Shown one piece after another: positions 4,391 to 60,960 of a stretch of DNA of 64,000 nucleotides. The notes under the pieces were generated by a model. The model ran no database searches and was not told the origin of the DNA. It saw only the letters and a list, made by a program, of their open reading frames with translations. Positions within the stretch are counted from its first letter, which is position 1, and every line of letters begins with the position of its first letter. Source of the stretch: Callorhinchus milii (lineage: Eukaryota); contig NW_024704742.1 of the NCBI RefSeq assembly GCF_018977255.1, forward strand, positions 104,348,001-104,412,000, written 5' to 3'. The translations under genes and the position numbers were made by a program.

Positions 4391-4722
4391 GTGGAGTCCT
4401 GTAGCTCAGTGGTTAGAGCACTCGCTTTGCAAGTGAGAGACCTGAGTTCAATTCCAGGCAGAGGGCGAAACCTTGGGCAAGTTTCCTTACTCCACACAGA
4501 GCCTAATAATAATCCCTCCATAAAAAAAACAATAATAAATTGGTCATTTTCAATCTACGACTGTTTGTGGGACATTGCTGTGCGCAATTGGCTGCCGCGT
4601 TCGCCCACAAATATACAGTCAATTCACTTTACAGTGTGTTCTGTGAAGCGCTTTGGGACGTCCTCCCGACGTGAAAAGCGCTGTATCAAATGCAAGGATT
4701 ATTATTATTATTATTATTATTA
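4391..4722 (+). mobile_element. tRNA-Ala-derived SINE, young short subfamily, full length
   Basis: A box tagctcagtgg, anticodon arm ctcgc-tt-TGC-aa-gtgag, B box gagttcaattcc, L2-like terminal stem-loop, (TTA)n tail; about 9 differences from the 57240 copy by eye. Confidence 0.95.
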
Positions 4723-5198
4723 GTGATCTGGTACCTCAACGCTAAATGGGTTCTGTGAGCAAACGCGAACCTTTAACACGTAACGGTCGCGGATGTGTGA
4801 AGGAGGACTGTGGCTGCAATATTTTTTTCTGACGTGCAGTGGTTTTGCAATGAATGTGCACCGGCGGTTTTGTCCAGACAGAGCCCTCCGTCACCGCTGT
4901 CTGTACACACAGTAATTGTACACGAAACTGCACCATTCGCTGCACCGCAGGACCTGAGCAAATCCGACGGAGATTCCCCATCAAAAATGGACATCGCAAA
5001 CCGTCGACTGAAACGGACGAGAACCGAACTGCGAGTCGCCCGGTCTCTGCCCTGAGGTTACGGTCGCGGCTGCAACAGGGAATAGGGATCCTTTGAGATG
5101 TAACCAAACGCCTCCCGCGGGGGTCGGGAAGGACTGTCAGACTGAACGCGCATTAAATAATGCAGCGAAGGACAACCCGAACTGACTATTTATTTATG

Positions 5199-6005
5199 TG
5201 GGGGGGGGGGGGGGGGGATGGTGGGGTGTGGGGTGGGGTAGGGGGGTGTGGGTAGGGTGGGGTGTGGGGGGGGGTGTGGGTAGGGTGGGGTGGGGTGTGG
5301 GTGGGGGCGTCCTTACACCCCACGATCTTCACCCCCACTGTCGCTCTTTATTCAAACGGGGGTCGGATTATTTGTGAAAGTAACTTTCCAGTGTCCCCTC
5401 CTCCCCCCCCCCCTCCCCCCCTCTCCTCCCTCCCCTCCCCCCTCCTCCTCCCCCACCTCCCCCCCCCCCCTCCCCCCCTCCTCCCTCCCCTCCCCCTCCT
5501 CCCCCCCCCTCCTCCTCCCCCACCTCCCCCCTCCTCCATCCCCCTCCCCCTTCCTCCCCCTCCCCCCTCCTCCTCCCTCCCCCTCCTCCATCCCCCTCCC
5601 CCCTCCTCCTCCCTCCCCCTCCCCCGTCCTCCCTTCCCCCCCTCCATCCCCCCTCCCCCCTCCTCCATCCCCCTCCCTCCCCCCTCCTCCTCCCCACTCC
5701 CCCCCCCCCCCTCCCCGGTGGGTAATGTCACAGTAGCTTCCCGTGGCTGTGAAGGGTGACTGAGTGCCTCTGGACGCCCCGATGATGATCTGTTCTGCAC
5801 AGTCTCTCCAAGGTCAGTTGTCCGTCGGAGACGGTGGGGAACAGAGACCCAGCGACACACACACACACACACACAGGGCGAGGGCACAGCTGGGGGGGGG
5901 GGGGGGGGTGTGGGGGCGGGGAGTGTGGGGGGGGGCGGGGAGGGAGTGGGGGGGCGGGGAGTGGGGGGGGGGGAGGGAGTGGGGGGTGGGGGGGTGGGGG
6001 GGGGG
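5199..6005. repeat. G-rich and C-rich low-complexity tracts (potential G-quadruplex / triplex DNA) plus a (CA)n repeat
   Basis: (GGGGT)-type repeats 5199-5308, C/T-only tract about 5395-5715, (CA)n about 5855-5874, G-rich tract 5891-6005. Confidence 0.85.
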
Positions 6006-6552
6006 TGCACTGGGTTCAAATGACACTGGAGCGGCGCAGTCCGCAATCCCCACCAGTTTATTGTGGGAGTCTTTATGGCTGTGTATTTATTGCGTGTGAA
6101 CGGATTCCGAAGGGTTTCAGTCTGTCTCGGATTTGCCAAACACACATTTACCACAAACGTCTGCAACTTCATCATTCATACCTCCAGCAAATCCCCCCTC
6201 ACCCCCCACACCGCCACCGATACTATTTCTGTCTTCCGGATGAATCAAGGCGGCTCCTCGGCCCGTTTATAGGCAAAACATATCCGAGAGCTAATAAGAT
6301 GGTAACCGAGGAAGGCAGTGCTTCCAATTCACGTTAATATTAAAATCACCACTGACTTTTTCCCCCTTTTCTCTCTCTGAACATTTCACTACAAACAAAA
6401 AAGGTTGGAACATTCAATGCACCAGAGCAAGGAGAGCGTTGCTGTGCTATGTGCTTATATATATTATATATATTATATATATAGTTGTGTGTGTGCTTCA
6501 CACTGGGGGAGTTTTGCTCCATTGCCTTATATAAGATGTCAGGCTGAGGCTC

Positions 6553-6868
6553 CAGCACTGAGTCAGTGCAGCACTGAGTCAACGCTGCACTTTCCAGGCA
6601 CAACCTACCTTGCTGGCGCCTGGCGCCGGGTGACGGCACAATCCAAAATAGTCCCCTCTGACGTCAGCGGGCCAATGGGAGGCCGGCAGTGGACAGCGGG
6701 GGGCGGGGCTCCAGAAGCAGGTTAGGTTGAGCGGCGGGTTCTGGGTTCCTTGTGGCCCTATTGGCCGCCTCCTCAGCCACACGGCCCGCCCAGCCCGGTC
6801 CGGCCCGCCCAGCCCAGTCCGGCCCGCCCAGCCCAGCCCGAGCAGGGGCACGGGGAGCGGGTTATTAA
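6553..6868 (+). promoter_or_regulatory. Pol II proximal promoter: AP-1 x2, CRE, CCAAT x2, GC boxes, TATA-like
   Basis: TGAGTCA at 6559 and 6575 inside a cagcactgagtca direct repeat; TGACGTCA 6659-6666; CCAAT 6672; GGGCGG 6701; ATTGG 6760; three CCGCCC in a tandem repeat at 6782-6840; TTATTAA 6862. Confidence 0.75.
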
Positions 6869-6889
6869 TGCAGAGTAAGCAGTCTGGCT

Positions 6890-7210
6890 TTGCTGCACAA
6901 GCATCGCCGCCACCACTGAGCAGCTGGACCTGTGCCAGCAGCCCAGAATTAGCTCATTGTTCAGTCCACTCCAACTACGGACAGTGGGGTAGACACCAAG
7001 ACAGCTTGTGGGTGTGTGTGTGTGTGGAGGGGGCAGAAGGCTGTCCACAGAGCTTTGGCTGCGCTTCATTTTTTTGTGGAGTGCAGTAGTTTTTTTTTTG
7101 CAAAACACACTGGTTATTTTTAAAAAAAAAAAAATTTGCTCCCCATTTTGGGAGCCGGTTGCAAAATCTGTATGTAGGTGGAAGGTGGAGCGGAGCAGAG
7201 GGCTTTGTCT
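6890..7210 (+). other. Putative first (non-coding) exon of an unidentified gene
   Basis: Lies downstream of the promoter motifs; ends at donor tct|GTAAGT (GT at 7211). Start inferred about 25 nt after the TATA-like motif. Confidence 0.55.
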
Positions 7211-7671
7211 GTAAGTACTGTGTTGTACCGCCGAGACGTTCATTCTGCAGCTCAGGCTTTTCGATTTGTGAATCAGAAGGTTTTATTTGCAGTCAGTGAG
7301 CAGTCGCTGGTGTGGTTGCCGGAGCTGACCGCCAGACAAGCACTCTTTTGTTCTTTCAGCGTTGCAGATTTCCTCGTAACCTTATACGACTTCGTTTTTT
7401 GCAGATTTTCCGAGCCTTTTTGCAGGTTTCGGGGTTTTTTTTTAAAAAAAAGTGCCTTTTAATATCCGAGGGTTTGTTCGGTTTGCAAAACCCGTCTGCA
7501 TTGCATTACACGTCTTAACATCGCGGCAAACGATTCTCGAATTGCCCGGTGATAGCGTTAAATTCAAGAAGTTAACACTGTGCCTGGAATGGTAATTGTC
7601 ACGTACGCTTCAGATGATTATAAATGAGAATGATGCATCCTCTTTGTCTCTTGTAGTTTGTTCCCCTTTAG

Positions 7672-12549: not shown

Positions 12550-15498
12550 TGAGTGCCCTACCTCCTCTCTCCCCTCTGCGCCACCTTCAGCCCCCGCAGT
12601 CTTCATGCCTGTGGGGCTGACTATGCCCCACTAACTGCCTGCCTCAAGTCTCGGCATTCGTATCTTGGCTGCCGCTCTCGACCCGAGCTGCTTTTCCCCA
12701 GAAATGCTCCCTACCCTGTAACTCTCCCACTCTGTCCTCCTCTCTCTCCATCCTCCTTGCCTCCGATGCCCATTTGAGCATCCTGCAGCCTCCCTCTGCT
12801 CCAGCCTGGGAATCCTCCCCTGGGCTCACCGTGGCACTCGGCGTTGGCGGTCCAGCAGCAGCCACACTGACTGCCCCTGACCCCCACTATCATCACAAGC
12901 CGCACCCGGGGCTTAACTTCTTCCTTATCCACATTCCCACCCTCCCTGCCAATCCTCCCAACACCCCCTCCCGTTTCACACATTCCTCTGCCAACTGCCC
13001 CCTCCTCATCGGCCTACAAAATGTCCTCTCCCTTTATAACAAGGCTCTCGCCATCAACAACATCATCGTTGATGAAAACATTGATATCCTGGCCCTCACG
13101 GAAACCTGGATCACCCAGGTGACACCTTCCCCCTGACTCAGGCCACACCACCTGGTTATACCTTCCACCCTACCCCACGTCCTAACTAGCGCCGTGGTGG
13201 TGTGGCCCTCACCTCCGTGTCATCACTTGCTCTATCCCTCTACTTCTCCGTCTCATTCCCCTCCTTTGAACACCTTATACTCTACCATCCCTCCAATCTT
13301 TCCCCAAAATTCTCCTGTTTTATCGCCCTACCCTCCCCCACCTTCATCTCTGACATCTCCGCCCTTCTAGCTTGCCTCTGTCTCTGTTCTCAACTCCTCC
13401 TCATCGTCAGTGACTTCAACCTGCATTTCACCGCTCTTGCTCTATCTCCACCAACTTATCATCTCTCCTTTCCTCTCACAGTCTTTCCCTCCACATCCAC
13501 TCTGCCACCTATGTTCATGGCCACCCACTTGACCTGATGATTACCTGGGGCCTCAGTATTTCAGGCCTCACAATCACCGATAAAGCCATCTCAGATCATC
13601 ACTTCATTTCCCTTAACTCCTCAATCCCTCTCCCCACCGCCACCCAACCCAACTCCATCTCAACAACGACAACAACAACTTGGACGGACGGCGTCTCAGA
13701 GCACTTCACAGTAACGAATCCCAGGGCCGAGCCAGGGGGAGGAAGGTGACCAAAGGCGCGGTCGAAAAGAAAGGTCTTTTCTCCACTACCAACTGGCTTC
13801 TCCATCCACCCTCTCACGCCTCATCCATCAACTCCTCCAACTCCAACTGTGAGGAGATGCTGCATTTCCTCGAGACCAAAATCGATTGGATCCATTCAGC
13901 CGCCTCCGCCCTCCCAACCGCCACTCCCTCCGCATCGCTCTCTCACACTCTGGCCCCTACCCATCCCTCCCTCCACACCTTCAAGCCGCCTCTCTCACCA
14001 CCACTATAACCCGCATGAAGCCCACCATCTGCTCCCTTGACCCCATCCCTACCCCTCTCCTTACCTCCAAGTTTCACCTCCTCGCCCCTTTACTTTCAGA
14101 CCTTGTCAACCTCTCACTGTCAACTGCCACCGTTCCCATCCCCTTAAAACAGCTGTCATCACCCCATCCTTTTAAAAAAAAAAAAACTGCTACAGCATGG
14201 AAATAGCCCCGGTCAAGATAACAAATGACATTCTGTCCATCTGTGACCAGGGCTCCCTCTGTCTCCTCGTCCTCCCCGACTTCTCTGATGCCTTTGATAC
14301 TGTGGACTACTCTATCCTCCACCGCCTCTTCTCTCACCTTAACCTTCAAGGTTCTGTCCTTGAATGGTTCAGATCCTATCTCACATCGGCTCCACTTTGT
14401 CTCCACAAATGGCGTTTCTTCCAACCTCTGCACCGTCTCGTGTAGTGTTTCTCCAGGCTTTGTCCTTGGTCCTCTCCTCTTTAAACTGTATATGCTCCCT
14501 CTTGGTGACATCATCCGCAGACATGAGGTCAATTTCCACATGTACGCGAATGATTCTGTCTCTCCACCCACAATTCCAGGACCACTGATGTCCTGTCAGA
14601 CTGCCTGTCAGACATCAAGTTCTGGATGAGAGCCAACTTTCTACAGTTCAACATTAGCAAGGCCAAGGATTTCCTGACTGGCTCATGCCAGCGCTTCCGC
14701 ACCTCAGGCACTGGCAGCATCAGCATGTAAGGATGCACACTCCACCTCACCAAGCCAGTCAGAAACCTAGGCATCTTGTTTGACCCTCAACTATCCTTTC
14801 TCCATATCCGTGCCATGACCCACTCTGCTTTCCCCCACCTTCTTAACATTGCTTGAATCCCCCACTGCCTCACCCATCAGGCCGCTGAAACACTCATACA
14901 TGCCTCCATTACATCCAGGCTTGACTCTGCCAATGCCCTGCTTGTTGGCCTTTCCAACATTTCCCTCCACAAGCTGCAAATCATCCAGAACTCTGAAGCT
15001 CGTGTCCTCTCCCGCACCAGGCTCTGTGACCCCATCACCCCCACCCTCGCCCGGCTCCACTGGCTCCCCATCCCTCAGAAGATCGAGTTCAAAATTCTTG
15101 TCCTCACCTTCAAGGCCCTCCATGGCCTTGCCCCCCCCCCACCACCTCTCCGACCTGCTAACCCTTTATCAACTGTCTGCTCCCTCGGCTCAGCAGGCTT
15201 CGGCCTGCTCCAAGTCCCCTGCCCGGCCCGCCCCAATATTGGCGGTTGAACCTTCAGCCTCTCTAGCCCCACCCTCTGGAACTCCATCCCACATTCCCTT
15301 TACCTTGTTCCCTCCCTTGCCTCTTTCACGGCACGCCTCAAGATCCTCCTCTTCTACCATACCTTCGGCAAATCTCACCTTCCACCCTCCCTGATTTCCC
15401 CCCCCACCGCCCACCTGGGTCCTGATCCCTGACCGTTCCACACCTTGGGACGTCCTCCCGTTGTGGAAGGCGCTATACAAATGTCATTTTGTATTGTA
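12550..15498 (+). mobile_element. Near-full-length defective L2 LINE (APE + RT), frameshifted, with internal deletions
   Basis: IGLQNV..ILALTETW and VSDFNLH (APE); PTICSLDPIP; DAFDTVD; VLGPLLF; YAND; LHWLP; terminal stem-loop at about 15440-15475; 5' region homologous to 56050-56335. Confidence 0.93.
13661..13779 (-). mobile_element. Short antisense L2 3' tail nested inside the long L2
   Basis: caacaacgacaacaacaac tail followed by the reverse complement of an L2 3' UTR (gtcgaaaagaaaggtc = TFLFD). Confidence 0.8.
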
Positions 15499-40352: not shown

Positions 40353-40727
40353 GGACCTGAATCCTGTAGCAAATTGGTTAGAGCACTCATCTCGCAAGCA
40401 AGAGGACCTGGGTTCAATTTCCGGCAGGGTAAAACCTTAAGCAAGTTTCCTTACTCCACATACCTCTGTTTACCTAACAGTGAGTAGGAACCTGGTTATT
40501 AGTCGATTGGCGGATCGCTTTTCCGGGGGTACTAACCCTTTTAAAAAAATGATTTGGTCACTCAGTCCATGATTGTTTGTGGGACACTGCTGTGTGCAAT
40601 TGGCTGCCAGTTTTCACCCACAAAATATACAGTCAATTCACTTTACAGTTTATTCTGTGAAGTGCTTTGAGAGGTGTTGAAGACTTGAAATGGTGCTATA
40701 TCAAATGCAAGGATTATTATTATTATT
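40353..40727 (+). mobile_element. tRNA-Ala-derived SINE, long subfamily
   Basis: tggttagagcactcatctCGCaag, gggttcaattt, (TTA)n tail. Confidence 0.9.
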
Positions 40728-45923: not shown

Positions 45924-46242
45924 GTGGAGTCCTGTAGTTCAGTGGTGGAAGAGCACTCGCTTTGCAAACAAGAGACTGGGTTCGATTCCCAGCTGGGAGA
46001 AACCTTGGGCAAGTTTCCTTACTCCACAAGCCTGATAATAATCCCTCAAAAAAAAACAATAATAAATTGGTCATTTCAATCCACGACTGTTTGTAGGACA
46101 CTGGTGTGCGCAATTGGCTGCTGCATTTCACCTACAAGTATACAGTCAATTTAGTTTACAGTCTATTCTTTGAAGCCCTTTGAGACATCTATAAGACATT
46201 AAAAGCGCTATATCAAATGCAAGGATTATTATTATTATTATT
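45924..46242 (+). mobile_element. tRNA-Ala-derived SINE, short subfamily, older copy
   Basis: gtggagtcctgtag head, TGC anticodon, same internal deletion as 4391, (TTA)n tail. Confidence 0.9.
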
Positions 46243-49044: not shown

Positions 49045-49155
49045 CAAAACACAAAATACTTCAGATGCTGGGAAAACTCAGCAGGTCAGGCAGCATCTAT
49101 GGAGAAAGGAAAGTGAGTCAACGTTTCAGGTCCATGATTCTTCGTCAGAACTCAA
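49045..49155 (-). mobile_element. About 110-bp Penelope-type terminal-repeat insertion carrying a hammerhead motif
   Basis: Homologous to 59091-59229; flanked by direct repeat accacatttta (49034-49044 and 49156-49166). Confidence 0.8.
49114..49154 (-). ncRNA. Minimal type I hammerhead ribozyme motif (stem II damaged)
   Basis: Minus strand: tGAGTT CTGACGA agaatcatggacct GAA ACGT T GACTCa; core boxes intact, stem I pairs, palindromic ACGT stem III. Confidence 0.7.
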
Positions 49156-51202: not shown

Positions 51203-52190
51203 CAAACAAACACAAACAAAATTACATTTGTATAGCACATTTCACATCCTGGGGACGTTCTAAGGCCCTGGACAATCAGTGTTTTGGACCTGAGCTGGCG
51301 GTCTGGATCGGGGAGGGTGGAGGGCGGGGGGAGAAGGAGGATGATTGAAGGCACAGTCAAAGAGGAGGGTCTTGAGATGGGTATTGAAGGAGGTAAGGGA
51401 GGGGGCGAGGTGGAGAGATTGCGGGATGGAGTTCCAGAGGGTGGGGGCAGAGTGGTTGAAGGCCCGCTTGTTAATGGTGGGGCAAACAAGGTCGGGGACG
51501 TGAAGCAAGCTGGAGCCCACTGAGTGGAGGGAGCGGGCAGGTTGGTAGGGGATTAGAAGGTTGCAGAGGTGGGGGGGAGCAAGGCCATGGAAAGCTTTGA
51601 AGGTGAGGACCAGGATCTTGAACTATATCCTCTGTGTGATGGGAAGCCAGTGGAGTCGGGCGTGGATGGGACTGATAAAGTCACGGAGCCTGGTGCGGGA
51701 GAGGACATGGGCTGCAGAGTTTTTGATGATCTGCAGCCTATAGAGGGAACGGTTGGGGAGGCCAACAAGCAGGGAGTTTGAATAGTCAAGCCTGGATGTT
51801 CTGAATGCATGTATGAAGATTTCAGCAGCCTGCGGTGTGAGACCGTGACAGAACTGGGTGATGTTACCAAGGTGGGGGAAGGCAGAATGGGTCATGGTAC
51901 GGATGTGGGGTACAAAGGATAGTTGAGGATCAAACAAGACTCCAAGGTTCTGGACTGGCTTAGTAAGGTGGAGTGTGAAACCATGGATGGTGATGCTGTC
52001 ACCTGAGGTGTGGAGGCGCTGACGGGAGCCAATCAGGAGAGCCTCGATCTTGTTGACGTTGAACTGAAGAAAGTTAGCTCTCATCCAGGACTTGATATCT
52101 GACAGATATTCTGTCAGGACAGCAGTGTTCCTGGAGTCAAGGGTTGAGGCAGAAACATACAGTTGGGTGTCATCCGCATGCATGTGGATC
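51203..52190 (-). mobile_element. L2 LINE, 5'-truncated RT fragment
   Basis: HMHADDTQLY..SRLDYSNSLLVGLP..ARLHWLPITQRI; SAPTLWNSIP; terminal stem-loop. Confidence 0.93.
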
Positions 52191-53039
52191 TCATCTCCTC
52201 CATTTCTAAAGCAATTGATAAACATACAGTTTTGTCTATTGTTCCAAATATTTATTTTCTCCTCAAAAATTCACAGTACTCTATAAAGCCCCATCTTACC
52301 TAGGACTTCAATATTGCTCCAACATTTGAGGAGCTTTTGGTAACAACAATCTCTCACTCTTGGACAATGTAAGAAAAATTTGCCATCTGACAAGTGATCA
52401 AACTCCTGCTTCTGACCTCCACCCTAACTCATTGTGCCATAGTCTTTCCTGTCTCTCCCTATTTCATCAGTGTTACAATGGTGGTGCTCCTCTTAAGTTC
52501 CCTCTATTGTCCTCCCAAGATTTATTATGTCATCCCGCACGCACTTTCTCTGCCTTTCATCTTCACTGTGTTAAAATCAAAACACTGAGCACTGTCGCCA
52601 ACTCTGGCTCATTCTTTCCCAGGTCCTGACCATGGGCCAAAGCCAGTCACTCTGGCACTCAATGAACGAGACACTTGTTGTAAACCCATCCAACTGATAT
52701 TTGATTTTGTACCTGCTTTTTAGGTCACCATAGCTATGGCCTACTATTCTGGTTCATGACCTACTTCTTAATTTTTGAACTCCAAAAAAGACTGAATGAC
52801 ATTAATTTATCCTTGGCTTTCTGAATCTCTTTGGTAAAGCTACCAATTTGTCTGATGAATTGGCAATTACATGTAGAGATGCTTATTGGTGTCAGACTGG
52901 CTCAGTTGCTAGTGAGACGTTACACCACATGAAGGGAGTTATATTTATAAATTACAACACATATATATTGTAAATTGTTATTGTTTTTGTTGGTAACACT
53001 CTTGCCTCTAGTCATCCCACACAAACTTCCTCTTCCTCA

Positions 53040-53691: not shown

Positions 53692-54822
53692 TCACTCATG
53701 TTGTAATTGCAGTTTTTCATAAAGTGAAAATAACCAACGAGCCTTTATGCTCCATCTTCTGCACTTTAAGGGGATGGCAAGCCAGTGGAGGCGAGCGAGG
53801 TTGGGAGTGATGTGGTCCCGAAGCCTGGTGCGGGACAATACATGAGCTGCAGAGTTCTGAATGACCTGCAGCTTGTGGAGGGAAGTGCCGGGAAGGCCGG
53901 CGAGGAGAGAGTTCCCATAGTCCAGCCTTGAGGTGATAAAGGCGTGGACCAGACTTTCAGCAGCGTGAGGGGTGAGGTAGTGCCGTAGTCTGGCGATGTT
54001 CCAGAGGTGATGGAAGGCGGTGCCAGTTGTGGCCCGGATGTGGGGAAGAAAGGACAGCTCAGGGTCGAACAGAACCCCGAGGTTCCTGACCGGCTTTGAG
54101 AGATGGAGAGTGCAGCCTTGGATGCTGATGGTGTCGGCGCCTGAGGTGTGGAGGCGCTGACATGAGCCAATCAGGAGGGCCTCAGTTTTACGCACGTTGA
54201 GCTGAAGAAAGTTGTCTCTCGTCCAGGACTCGATGTCAGACAGGAAGGCTGTCAGGACATCGGTGGTCGTGGAGTTGAGGGTAGAGGAGGAAAGGTAGAG
54301 TTGGGTGTCATCCGCATACATGTGGAAGTTAACCCCATGTCTGCGGATGATGTTACCAACGGGGAGCATATAGAGGGTGAAGAGGAGGGGACCGAGGACA
54401 GAGCCCTGAGGGACACCGCACGAGACAAAGCCGTTTGTGGAAACAAAATGAAGACGGTGGGAGAGGTATGACCTAAACAACTCAAGGACAGGGCCTTGAA
54501 GGTTGAGGTGGGAGGACAAGCGGTGGAGGAGGATAGCGTGGTCGACCGTATCGAATGTTGCCGATAGGTCGAGGAGGACGAGGAGGCAGAGGGAGCCCTG
54601 GTCGCAGATGGTCAAGATGTCATTGGTGACCTTGACCAGGGCAGTTTCTGTGCTATGAGCAGCACGGAAACCCGACTGAAGGGTTTTGAATAATGCATGG
54701 GTGGAGAGGAAAGAGCGCAGCTGGGAGGCGACAACTCTTTCAAAGACCTTGGACAGGAAGGGGAGGTTGGAGATGGGCCGGTAGCTTGATAGCTGCGACG
54801 CATCAAGGGAGGGTTTTTTCAA
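53692..54822 (-). pseudogene. L2 ORF2 reverse transcriptase domain (376-aa open frame; last residues run into flank)
   Basis: [48 protein letters not shown] motifs. Confidence 0.93.
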
Positions 54823-56335
54823 AGTGGGAGTGATGATGGCAGTTTTTAGGGAATGGGAACAGAGCCAGAGGAGAGGGACAGGTTGATGATGTCTGTGATA
54901 TGTGGGGCAAGGAGGTGGAGCTGAGAGATAAGGAGTGGAATGGGGATGGGGTCAAGGGAGCAGGTGGTGGGTTTCAGGGACAGGGTGAGGTTGGTGACAG
55001 AGGGTGGGGAAACGGGTACGAAGGTGTGCAGGGGAGGATGGGTAGGAGTCGGAGTGTGGGAGGGAGGGGTGGGGGGTGGGTGGAAGTTGGAGGGGAGTGA
55101 CCGCAGAGCGGATTCCCTTGATTTTGGATTCAAGGAAATCCAGCATCTCCTCGCAGTGAAGGTTGGAGGAGATGACCTGCACGGGGTGGTGGGGGGATGG
55201 AGGAGTCGGGATGTGGTTAACTTCTTCCAGGGGCGGTAGAAGATGGTGGTGGGTCTGGTGGAGGTGGGGAGGGGGGTGGAGGTGGTGAAGGAGATGAAGT
55301 GGTGATTGGAGATGGCCTTGTCGGTAATGGTGACATCCGAGACACTGAGGCCCCGAGTGATCACCAAATCGAGTGGGTGACCGTGACTGTGAGTGGCGGA
55401 GTTGATGTGGAGGGAGAGGTTGAGCGAGGAGAGCAGGGAAGAGAAGTCCGAGGAGATGGAGCAGGAGGGGTGAAGTGCAGGTTGAAGTCACCCAGGATGA
55501 TGAGGCGATCAGAGCAGAGGCAGAGAGATGTAAGTAGTGTAGAAATATCGGAGACGAAGGTGGGAGAGGTTTTAGGGGGCCGGTAGAGGAGGAGGATTTT
55601 AAGTGAGAGGAAGGAGGGGTAGGAGAGGGTGAGGTGCTCGAAAGAGGGGAAAGAGCCAGAGGAGTAGGGGGATAGGGCAAGTGGTGTCCTTGAGATAAAG
55701 GCAACACCACATCCACGGCGGTTGGGGCGAGGGATGTGGTGGGAAGTGTAGCCGGGTGGCGTGGCCTCTGTGAAGGGGAAGGTGTCACCTGGGGTGAGCC
55801 AGGTTTCCGTTAAGGCTATGATGTCAACGCTCTCATCAAGGATGAGATCGTTGATGACCAGGACCTTGTTACAGAGGAAGCGGACGTTTTGTAGTCCGAT
55901 GTGGAGGGAGCGGTTGATAGAAGGGTGTGTGGTGAGGGAGGGGAGTCCAGGTTGTGAGGCAGGGGTGGGGGGAATGGGGATAAGGGAGGAGAGGTTGACT
56001 CCCCGGGTCTGTGCCCGGGGTGGCTGGGGAGTGTAGTGGGGAATGGGGCAGTCGGTGTGGCTGCTGCTGGACAGCCAACGCCGAGTGCCACGGTGAGTCC
56101 GGCGGAGGATTCCCAGGCTGGAACAGAGGGAGGTTGTGGGAGGGTCAAGTGGGGATAAAAGGCGAGAGGGACGGAGAGATAAGACAGAGAGGGAGAAATG
56201 CAGAGGGGGGAGGGTTTGGGGGGAGAGAGGAGGGGTTGAGGGGGCTCGGGTCAGAGAGGCAGCCATATTACGCACGCGGGGACCGGTAGCAGGCGGTCAG
56301 GTGGATGGCATTAACCCATAGGCTGGGACTGGAGC
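53767..56335 (-). mobile_element. Near-full-length L2 LINE lacking its 3' end; APE + RT in frameshifted ORFs
   Basis: ORFs 55361-56275, 54846-55367 and 53692-54822 tile ORF2; homology stops abruptly after LHWLAIP with no tail. Confidence 0.95.
55361..56275 (-). pseudogene. L2 ORF2 N-terminus and AP-endonuclease domain
   Basis: LGILRRTHRG, GLQNVR, IALTETWL, RGCGVA, LYRPP, ILGDFNLH; ISNHH lies in the next frame. Confidence 0.92.
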
Positions 56336-57239: not shown

Positions 57240-57557
57240 GTGGAGTCCTGTAGCTCAGTGGTTAGAGCACTCGCTTTGCAAGCGGGAGACCTGAGTTCAA
57301 TTCCAGGCAGAGGTCGAAACCTTGGGCAAGTTTCCTTACTCCACACAGAGCCTAATAATAATCCCTCCAAAACCAAAACAATAATAAATTGGTCATTTTC
57401 AATCTACGACTGTTTGTGGGACATTGCTGTGCGCAATTGGCTGCCGCGTTCACCCACAAATATACAGTCAATTCACTTTACAGTGCGTTCTGTGAAGCGC
57501 TTTGGGACGTCCTCCCGACGTGAAAAGCGCTATATCAAATGCAAGGATTATTATTAT
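57240..57557 (+). mobile_element. tRNA-Ala-derived SINE, young short subfamily
   Basis: Nearly identical to 4391-4722. Confidence 0.95.
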
Positions 57558-57900
57558 ACAATACAATCACAATGCAATTTACATTGTGTAACACCTTTCA
57601 TGTCGGGGCATCCCAAATCACATTTACAGTGCCCGATTGACACCCGAGCTGGGGTTGGGAGCCAAGTAGGGTGGGAGGGGAAAGATGACCAAAAGCGTGA
57701 TCAAAGAGGTATGTTTTGAAAGAGGGGAGAGAAGGAGCAAGTCGGAAAGATGTAGTTTCAGAGAGAAGTGGTAGAATGGCTGAACATTCGCTCCCTGATA
57801 GTGGGACGGTTAGGGCGGGGGGCATGAAGCAGGTTGCTGCTCACTGAGTGAAGGGAGTGGCCGGGTTGGTCGAGTTGAAGTAAGTCGCAGAGTATTTCAT
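57558..57900 (-). mobile_element. Old L2 3' fragment, tail-to-tail with the SINE
   Basis: Minus translation SFRLAPSLPSFKTYLFDHAF; degenerate stem-loop. Confidence 0.8.
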
Positions 57901-58054
57901 AACCAGATTTAGGTCTGTGACACTTCCAATGCCCTGTGCGAAAAGGCTTCTAATACAAGCCAAGATTACAAATCTAGTCCATTGCTTGTAAATAAACAAG
58001 ATAGATGTGAATGTGAAAGAAGGTACCAATGGGGAAAATATTTTATACATTGAA

Positions 58055-58143
58055 AATACCTGTGCTAGCAAGATCATATCATGTATAACTTACCACAGTT
58101 AGTGGTAAGTTATACATAATATGACCTTGTTAGCACAGGTATT
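58055..58143. repeat. Near-perfect inverted repeat, 42-bp arms with 5-nt loop
   Basis: 58055-58096 versus 58102-58143: 39 of 42 positions Watson-Crick complementary; the three differences are transitions. Confidence 0.95.
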
Positions 58144-58799
58144 CCTAGTAGTTAGTATTAATATTTGTGTTCTGACTTGAAAGCTGGTTCTTAAAGATGT
58201 AATGAAGAGCGCAATATGCCCCAAATTAACCTGCAATCTAATCTCTGGAAAAATGGAATAACAGCTGGTTTTGCATAAACAGGGTCTTTCTGAATCTTCT
58301 TGATTGGCAAGAATAACGTGGGAGTATGTGAAAGGAAAAGTAGTACAGCTTAACCATTTGCATTCTTTTCTAACAGTTTATAAAAACTTATTTCTGAGCA
58401 GCAATCCATTACGCTTGTTAATACAAAATGTAAATTGTCTTTCAAACACTCTGAACATAAGATATTAATACGTGGGGGAAGATCATCCCTGTGATCTAAA
58501 TTAGGAGGATATTGTAAGTTATTGATAAAAATTGAGATTACAATGAACCCTGAAGCACATTTAAGAAGCTCGGACTGGAATAGCACGCGATCAGTCTCAC
58601 ATAGTTGGTAATGACCAAACAAGTGGGTGTTTAGAAACAGCGGAACATTATCAGCCAAACAAAATAACTGGTGTTTATTCAGCGCCAGTTCATGAACTTC
58701 AATTAAGAACCACATGTCTTTTATCCAAAATGATAATTTTTACTATCCTCTTCCACAACTCTATTCAGCTGTAACGATAAAAATAATAGTAATCCTTGC

Positions 58800-59229
58800 A
58801 CAAAAACAGAAGTCGCTGGGAACACTCAGCAGGTCAGGCAGCATCTATGGAAAAAGGAAAGTGAGTGTTAATAATCTAAAAATTTGCTTCCACTTTCCAC
58901 CCCTCCATGACATTCACATGGTGCACATCTCTATTTCCTGTTTTGTTGTAATCCCCCCTTTTGTTTTGCATCATTAACGCCACTTTAACCCATCATCCGC
59001 TGTTCTCTACCTCACTTTCTCCTTTGTCTTCCTTGTCCTGCCTTCCCCCTCTCTGTTAGCCCTTAAAAGCCTCTCCCTCCCAACATTCCCCAGTTCTGAC
59101 GAAGGGTCAGGACCTGAAATGTTGACTGACTTTCCTTTCTCTATGGAGGCTGCCTGACCTGCTGATGGTTCCCAGCGACTTCTGTTTTTGTTTCAGATTT
59201 CCAGCATCTGCAATATTTTGCGTTTTGTA
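58800..59229 (+). mobile_element. Non-coding Penelope-type element with inverted 5' segment and hammerhead motif
   Basis: 58800-58866 is an inverted copy of 59125-59191; inserted in a SINE tail with duplication ta(g/a)taatccttgc (58787-58799 and 59230-59242). Confidence 0.8.
59091..59128 (+). ncRNA. Minimal type I hammerhead ribozyme motif
   Basis: CAGTT CTGACGA a-gggt-cagg-acct GAA ATGT T GACTG; stem I CAGTT/GACTG, stem II gggt/acct, stem III ATGT (CpG-decayed ACGT), GUU triplet. Confidence 0.75.
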
Positions 59230-59590
59230 TAATAATCCTTGCTTTTGATATAGCACCTTATCACGTCTTCAAGACGTCTCAAAGTGCTTCACAGAATATA
59301 CTGTGAAGTGAATTGACTGTATATTTTTTGGGCGAAACGCGGCAGCCAATTGTGCACAGCAGTATCCCACAACAGTCGTGGATTGAAGTGAGCAATTTTT
59401 TAAAAAATGAATTATTACCCCCTGAAAAGTGATCTGCCAATCGACTAACAACCAGGTTCCTATTTACTGCTTGGTAAACGGAGGAATGTGGATTGAGGAA
59501 ACTCACCCAACATTTCGCCTGCTGGGAATCGAACCTAAGTCTCTTGCTTGCGAGGTGAGTCCTCCAACCACTGAGCTACAGGACTCCACA
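59230..59590 (-). mobile_element. tRNA-derived SINE, long subfamily
   Basis: Reverse strand starts gtggagtcctgtagctcagtggttgg, B box ggttcgattcc; full body and tail. Confidence 0.92.
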
Positions 59591-60960
59591 TGCAATATCA
59601 GACATGAAGCCAGATTTGTTTTATTACTATACAACCATTCTACTTGGTAATCATAGAACTGCCTGTGACTTGCAGTTAAGGTGGGAAGAAGGGCAGATGG
59701 AGAATATAATGTATTATATTCTAAAGTGATAACTATTACCTCTCACTATGATCTACAGTAACTTTTAAAAGACTCAAAGACAATATTGCAATGTCAGGGG
59801 CTGCCCAAGCCTGAATGTAGAACAGAGTTGGGGATAATCATACCATCACCCTCACAGAGTGAAAAATACATCTGCAAAGAAATGAATAACATGAGACCAA
59901 ATGGAAGATTTCATCTCATAAAGTGAACCTTTGCTTCCAAAATCTTTTGGCTATTAACACTAGCCAAGAGTTTTCTCAAATAACTTGTATTTGCCTCAGG
60001 ATTGATATCATAACTATTTTAAAGTGTATTAAAGATGACATTTTCCAATGGTTGGTAGATTTATAGGTTGTGGCTGAATGCGCTTATAATGGGGAAAATC
60101 ATTGATTTACATGGATCAAGTCCAGGCCAGACTCATGGAATAAAGGTCTCCTTTATAAGAGGGCTCTCTTTGCTGGCTGAATGGGTCTGTTGACTATTTT
60201 ATACTGTACTTTTCACTGCAATGCAAATGCAGACAGTATAAATCTATCTGACATTTTCTCAAACATGGTTTCTAAAAACTTGGGAAAACCCACAGACTTT
60301 TAACGGATTATCGTTAATGTTATTAAACAACTATTTGCCTGTAAATTCTTTAATTATATTAGAAACTAAAACAAATTAGCGGAACCCTAAACTTAGTTGT
60401 TCTTGTACAGAGCTCTGCTGAGCATTGTCTCCAAAGGTATATATTGTATTCATCATCTCTACAGCTTCAGCCCCGTTACTGGATAGTCCAAGTCCACACT
60501 ACAGAACTGCCCTGTAATTCAGTACTGCTGGCATTAAATTCAAACTAAGATGCCACAAGAATACAGTATCCTTGCGGTGGTAGTAGTGTGGGAAACAGAA
60601 AGGCTCCAGTAGGTTAACATTTCATCCAAAGGATGGCATTCCAACAGTGCAGCACATATCCGGCACTGAATTGGTGTGTCAGCCTAGACACTACGAGTTC
60701 AAAGTTCCAACGTGGAGTTTGCACCCATAACCTTCTGACTTGGAGGCAAGAGTGCTACCCCTACACAGCTGAAGATAAATGTATCAATTCGGCTCAGTTG
60801 GCAGCTCAGTTTGACTACAAATACATTTGCACACTCGTAGTGACTGTAATTGCAGTCAAACTCAGCAGCCAATTTTCTCATAGCAAAGTCTCACAAACAA
60901 CCATGAAGTGAATGACATTTTTTTAAAATCTAGGGGTTGGCTAGGACACTGGAAGAAACT

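Follow-up and report, generated by a model that had tools for sequence, protein, structure and literature searches.

The 429-bp insert at 58800-59228 of the 64-kb stretch of DNA analysed (hereafter the window) is probably a Penelope-like element of the endonuclease-bearing kind (EN+ PLE), dead and truncated at its 5' end, made by priming from two target strands and with an ordinary truncation at the inner end of its inverted arm. The structural marks of PLEs are present: an inverted 5'-truncated copy, a one-sided tail, variable truncation, and a target site duplication (TSD) at an AT-rich site. By these four marks the insert looks like an EN+ PLE insertion. No RT or GIY-YIG open reading frame (ORF) was found linked to it, so the assignment to PLEs draws on structure and motif instead of protein. 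The arrangement of truncated PLE end, hammerhead and inverted copy is already described, and the insert as it stands is one of very many decayed PLE ends, leaving the described pattern unchanged.

The insert and its target

The features of the insert, its target and a second family copy are as follows.

58786-58799 (+): left TSD copy, 14 nt, made up of the SINE end plus part of the ATT-repeat tail; 13/14 identical to 59229-59242
58800-58866 (-): inverted arm, 67 nt, corresponding to 59125-59191 and without the tail (pairwise alignment)
58867-59090 (+): pyrimidine-rich, 5'-truncated body, repeated in three organisms (contig depth)
59091-59128 (+): minimal type I hammerhead motif (descriptor search; minimal hammerhead consensus in the available part of PMC4209133, Fig. 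S3)
59125-59191 (+): direct arm, common to the inverted copy (pairwise alignment)
59192-59228 (+): one-sided 37-nt extension beyond the match of the inverted arm, corresponding to the optional PLE tail
59229-59242 (+): right TSD copy (repeat-family comparison)
59229-59591 (-): tRNA-derived host SINE that received the insertion in its tail; the window has about 20 related loci, with four sister copies matching Rfam tRNA
49045-49155 (-): second, solo family copy, 111 bp, with hammerhead, arm, tail end and an internal deletion, without inverted arm

The insert fills the interval between the two copies of the duplication. A preliminary description, made from the letters of the window, had given a 430-bp element without an ORF, bounded by a 13-bp duplication of a SINE tail. 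The size is 429 bp, and there is a 27-codon open frame at 59147-59227; the duplication is real but 14 nt long with one mismatch. The 67-nt inverted copy (58800-58866 against 59125-59191) was confirmed by the arm alignment at 90% complementarity, the two arms differing at 7 of 67 positions. The 37-nt extension, which sits on the direct end alone, is an addition to that description. The body at 58867-59090 is likely the 3' untranslated or pseudo-LTR region of the element and has no second copy within the 64-kb window.

Insertion after the host SINE, as had been proposed, is upheld by the duplicated word, which includes the non-microsatellite end of the SINE and is single in nine other aligned SINE copies. 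As this unique end is single in the sister copies, the element is younger than the SINE. One end of the duplicated word falls in the ATT-repeat tail. The window holds about 20 copies of this tRNA-derived SINE with an (ATT)n tail (for example at 4399-4461, 40360-40432, 45931-45996 and 57248-57310), and four SINE heads in it exceed the Rfam tRNA threshold.

Hammerhead motif, second copy and family

Hammerhead positions follow the numbering in general use. All parts of the motif were located where they had first been reported, between 59091 and 59128: stem I (59091-95/59124-28), CTGACGA (59096-102), a bulged A (59103), stem II (59104-07/59112-15) and GAAA (59116-19), followed by TG-T-T, with the predicted cut at 59123/59124 (GUU). 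A search with a minimal-hammerhead descriptor gave one match in the window, this one, and none in 100 simulated 64-kb windows, so the motif is beyond chance. A search against Rfam gave no hammerhead match at the gathering score or at E up to 10, a silence that would be expected for a minimal hammerhead.

Assignment to the minimal type I hammerheads of PLEs holds, with CUGANGA-H, stem II, GAAA, a palindromic 15.2/16.2, NUH and a short stem I all present. As in the metazoan PLE motifs of PMC4209133 (this and the other papers cited are drawn on for the parts available to us), there is an unpaired base before stem II, loop III is lacking and NUH is GUU; unlike them, this copy has G-U in place of the G10.1-C11.1 pair, and AUGU as its palindrome. 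The conserved G10.1-C11.1 pair is absent from both window copies, which have G-U. One contig of organism C has C at 11.1, and the G-U pair is therefore probably the result of CpG decay; 11.1 (T) and 15.2 (T), the decayed positions of the motif, are two probable CpG positions. The stem III palindrome is decayed in the insert (ATGT, wobble) and perfect in the second copy (ACGT). The lowest-energy fold of the monomer is other than the hammerhead (-12.0 versus -6.5 kcal/mol; z -0.47). As the motif is decayed and would have to pair with another copy, cutting of host RNA by this one is unlikely. Published work on minimal hammerheads describes dispersed single motifs from truncated PLEs as well as opposite-strand pairs, and no cartilaginous fish is among the 56 motifs of Fig. 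S3 in the available part of that paper, from which this exact family is absent (PMC4209133).

The second copy is flanked by a perfect 11-nt duplication (49034-49044/49156-49166; about 0.001 expected by chance), and its 5' end lies 36 nt upstream of the predicted cut. Stem I carries a compensatory change, G-C in the second copy versus C-G in the insert, and stem II of the second copy is damaged. Over the 52 positions shared with the second copy (49067-49118), the inverted arm differs from it at 2 and from its own direct arm at 7, the covarying stem I base included; the private changes number 6 versus 1, which is not significant (p = 0.125). The change at 59148 is private to this copy according to contig letter counts. 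The closeness of the inverted arm to the second copy is a hint, though not a significant one, that two template RNAs may have been used.

Family abundance was examined by aligning contigs of 4 of 24 sequencing runs to the insert and its surroundings, the SINE included, at 80% likeness. The family is very abundant in the contigs of organisms A, B and C. Summed contig depth over the arm core reaches about 88,000 times (run X1) and 108,000 times (run X6) that of single-copy flank, figures that give an order of magnitude and not a copy number. In X1, depth falls 5'-ward from about 1.0 million over the core (both arms) to 63,425 just upstream of it, and then to 51,345, 31,987, 20,336, 9,400 (at 58944-58975) and 278-584, the single-copy flank having 11.4; the gradient is confounded by sequence divergence at the 80% threshold. 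Tail depth is 0.27-0.38 of the core in four runs, and 759 contigs of X6 show a loose end where the insert begins, at 58800. Among the 32 contig pieces displayed, of about 260,000 (minus-strand records being read with the first letter at the right end), 20 start at 58936-58962, and 11 of these have more unmatched upstream letters (94-895) than remain in the window copy; the extra letters may be family sequence or flanks. The stepwise depth and the copy lengths are as expected if a longer element left copies cut short at the 5' end, and do not suggest a fixed 430-bp unit.

At position 59060, C is the majority in organism A (T at 14% of depth) and T accounts for 97-98% in B and C, a split that suggests lineage-specific subfamily activity. 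Family copies were found in none of three scans of viral contigs, and plasmids gave no match. Twelve metagenome and seven genome loci proved to be chance 21-nt matches without extension, and all 19 were dropped. The family may already be named in repeat databases. In character, the repeats may be of the kind seen in cartilaginous fishes.

Mode of insertion and the inverted arm

The insert resembles EN+ PLEs (Penelope/Poseidon, Neptune, Nematis) in its 5' truncation, head-to-head inverted 3' end and target duplication, and also in its one-sided tail (30-40 bp in those elements, 37 nt here), its AT-rich/ATT target and a hammerhead about 100 nt from the end. An inverted pseudo-LTR, an optional 31-bp tail at one end and TSDs of 8-10 bp are reported for PLEs (PMC3846280), as are an inverted 5'-truncated copy and a 30-40 bp tail at one end (PMC8557442; we found no cartilaginous-fish entry in the available part of its supplement). 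The insert is unlike rotifer PLEs, with TSDs of 8-10 bp, in that its TSD has 14 nt and that of the second copy 11 nt, and unlike a typical EN+ PLE in that no RT/GIY-YIG ORF is left in this copy; assignment to a clade needs a protein. Six-frame ORFs searched with Pfam revealed no RT/GIY-YIG ORF linked to the repeat in the window. Mobilisation by a Penelope RT/GIY-YIG enzyme, as first proposed, is the likely route, as judged from structure.

The likely mechanism is modelled on the PAc protein of the anole, which in vitro cuts and extends both strands, prefers ATT and uses two RT start sites flanking the tail (PMC11167929). An RT/GIY-YIG protein would place a nick in each strand of the AT-rich SINE tail, with about 14 nt between the nicks. 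From one strand, reverse transcription would be primed at the outer start (59228) on uncut RNA and continue for 362 nt through tail, arm and hammerhead; from the other, it would be primed at the inner start (59191) and stop after 67 nt. A head-to-head join of the two cDNAs and the filling of gaps would follow. The short cDNA would probably owe its inner end to an ordinary truncation, caused perhaps by a stall in stem I or by a microhomology join, and not to cutting by the ribozyme.

In twin priming of L1 elements, the second target strand primes an inverted piece, with a TSD, and this piece is copied from a more upstream part of one and the same RNA. The inverted piece here differs in duplicating the 3' end, and two RNAs or re-use of the template are therefore needed. 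In place of priming from both target strands, one cDNA (or an antisense template) could have primed itself by fold-back at microhomology, the tail becoming one-sided through endonuclease resolution. This live variant concerns how the insert was made and leaves its PLE origin as it is; we consider it possible but rather unlikely. Palindromes at inverted PLE junctions have been read in print as a sign of self-priming (PMC3846280), and the tail has been attributed to endonuclease resolution (PMC8557442). Base-by-base alignment, however, reveals no palindrome at this junction, the seven differences between the arms, among them the covarying stem I base, would require later mutation of copies of a single template, and PAc extends both strands from two start sites (PMC11167929).

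Priming from two target strands is the preferred reading. The preliminary description took the inversion to record an RNA end made by the ribozyme, the arm starting 1-2 nt past the predicted cut. The distance is 1 nt and not 2: the match stops at 58866, which corresponds to 59125, and G59124, with which the predicted 3' cleavage product begins, is the sole product base missing from the inverted arm. An alignment with a 2-nt slip that would lengthen the inverted arm by 3-4 nt across the cut was dropped, as the variant it required was not seen, and 58866 was kept.

In its general form the proposal, which is compatible with PLE parentage, would make a sizeable share of inverted arms run-off copies of hammerhead 3' cleavage products, with the second target strand as primer and a further RNA molecule as template, so that inversion breakpoints record the cut. 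We regard this as improbable, both in general and for this arm, and the 1-nt proximity, although real, as probably due to chance. Apart from that proximity to the predicted new 5' end, the proposal can draw on a joint from 58864 to 59169 (X6, X14) that is near the site but censored by the arm end of the reference, and on a 16-18-fold drop in depth (32-fold in a possible RNA run) from the arm core to the bin upstream of the hammerhead, more than half of which lies downstream of the cut and is confounded by divergence at the 80% threshold. The unequal distances of the inverted arm to its own direct arm and to the second copy would also be as expected of two RNAs.

The case is a single one, however, and an end within 1-3 nt of the cut has a 1.5-5% chance per element under simple nulls of our own choosing. 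Two X10 junctions end elsewhere, one about 26 nt upstream of the cut and the other 14 nt downstream, whichever strand is taken for the joint. By eye, the four displayed junction rows on the inner end of the inverted arm comprise two away from the site, one ambiguous and one near but censored; 15 of 957 joint rows and 12 of 503 'between' rows were displayed. The direct arm and the second copy both run through the site and were hence copied from uncut RNA. In the anole element, mutation of the hammerhead leaves insertion normal and RNA-seq shows no read with either end at the site (PMC11167929), and published PLE inverted repeats vary in size from copy to copy (PMC2377424). The case for an inversion made at a ribozyme-cut end is thus weak. 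Joints of the 'opposite strand' type that link one arm with the other were discarded as artefacts, the reference containing both arms.

The role of the PLE hammerhead is described as unclear (PMC8557442), and it is dispensable in vitro (PMC11167929). Apart from the negative RNA-seq remark in the latter, we found no report, in the parts of the literature available to us, that maps PLE inversion breakpoints to the hammerhead site. The insert would matter only if a breakpoint peak were real; the family has tens of thousands of fold-back copies. If the proposal were true, the genome would be a fossil record of minimal hammerheads cutting in vivo and shaping insertions, and priming on two RNAs by a protein dimer would be evident from arm pairs that belong to different subfamilies.

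The retrozyme-like, non-autonomous family first suggested, taken as a discrete one with a unit of about 430 bp, a circular RNA intermediate and PLE mobilisation in trans, is very improbable, given the absence of a tandem array at 57500-60500, the 5'-ward loss of depth and the 111-bp second copy. The insert does resemble the non-LTR retrozymes of animals in being non-coding, with a type I hammerhead, a relation to PLE pseudo-LTRs and larger TSDs; unlike the insert, those are defined by circular RNA and by units in head-to-tail tandem that carry two or more hammerheads (PMC7229834). Their relation to PLE pseudo-LTRs and their occurrence as monomers are also given, with one cartilaginous fish among the retrozyme-positive genomes, in the available part of a recent preprint (bioRxiv 10.64898/2026.07.22.740005). 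The very high copy number and the lack of an ORF in the insert (the 27-codon frame aside) or of a linked autonomous ORF would agree with such a family. Against it, each copy has a single motif and no head-to-tail array is found at 57500-60500, the inverted arm is without a hammerhead, copy length is variable (429 versus 111 bp), depth is not flat along the unit, 11 of the 20 displayed pieces extend upstream beyond the window copy (as family sequence or flanks), and the tail and inverted arm are PLE marks. The hammerhead, which has no Rfam match, is minimal and not canonical with loop I-II contacts. The tandem and canonical-hammerhead marks of non-LTR retrozymes are absent at this locus.

Reading frame, candidate intron and surrounding sequence

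A branch-point-like word, a pyrimidine tract and AG-ATG are predicted at 58844-58865 (-) and 49099-49117 (-). They are intact in the inverted arm and the second copy and mutated in the direct arm (59125-59191), and the branch-point-like word overlaps the 3' strand of hammerhead stem I. In the direct arm the frame after AG-ATG is open for its 27 codons (59147-59227) through to the end of the tail. The hammerhead may thus lie within a 5' intron of the parent element, just upstream of branch point and AG-ATG. PLE pseudo-LTRs are known to contain an intron (PMC2377424), and the first ORF codons fall inside them (PMC3846280). In PAc the start codon is at stem II, unlike the predicted start codon here, 23 nt downstream of the cut. 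The short frame had no match among 1.84 billion protein representatives and no candidate among longer proteins, each a weak test with a query of 32-40 aa.

The first six codons after the inverted junction (58867-58884) read VNNLKI and could represent what is left of the end of the parent ORF, fish Penelope-type ORFs having similar ends. In that case a microhomology join may account for the junction.

None of the 140 six-frame ORFs of at least 88 aa in the window has a credible host-gene Pfam match that would place the insert, as had been proposed, in sense to a host pre-mRNA. The orthologous flank contig of organism B ends at about 58785. The interval 4900-7500 is CpG-rich, with CCAAT words and long C/G runs, and may represent a promoter or first exon; a coding exon was not identified. 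A broken LINE ORF2 at 53695-56296 (-) has Pfam matches to AP endonuclease and RT, and Pfam identifies more RT fragments at 2141-2488, 14222-14626 and 51626-52270. A near-perfect 89-bp hairpin at 58055-58143 (42-nt arms, 93%, 5-nt loop), single in the window, is possibly a small non-autonomous DNA transposon.
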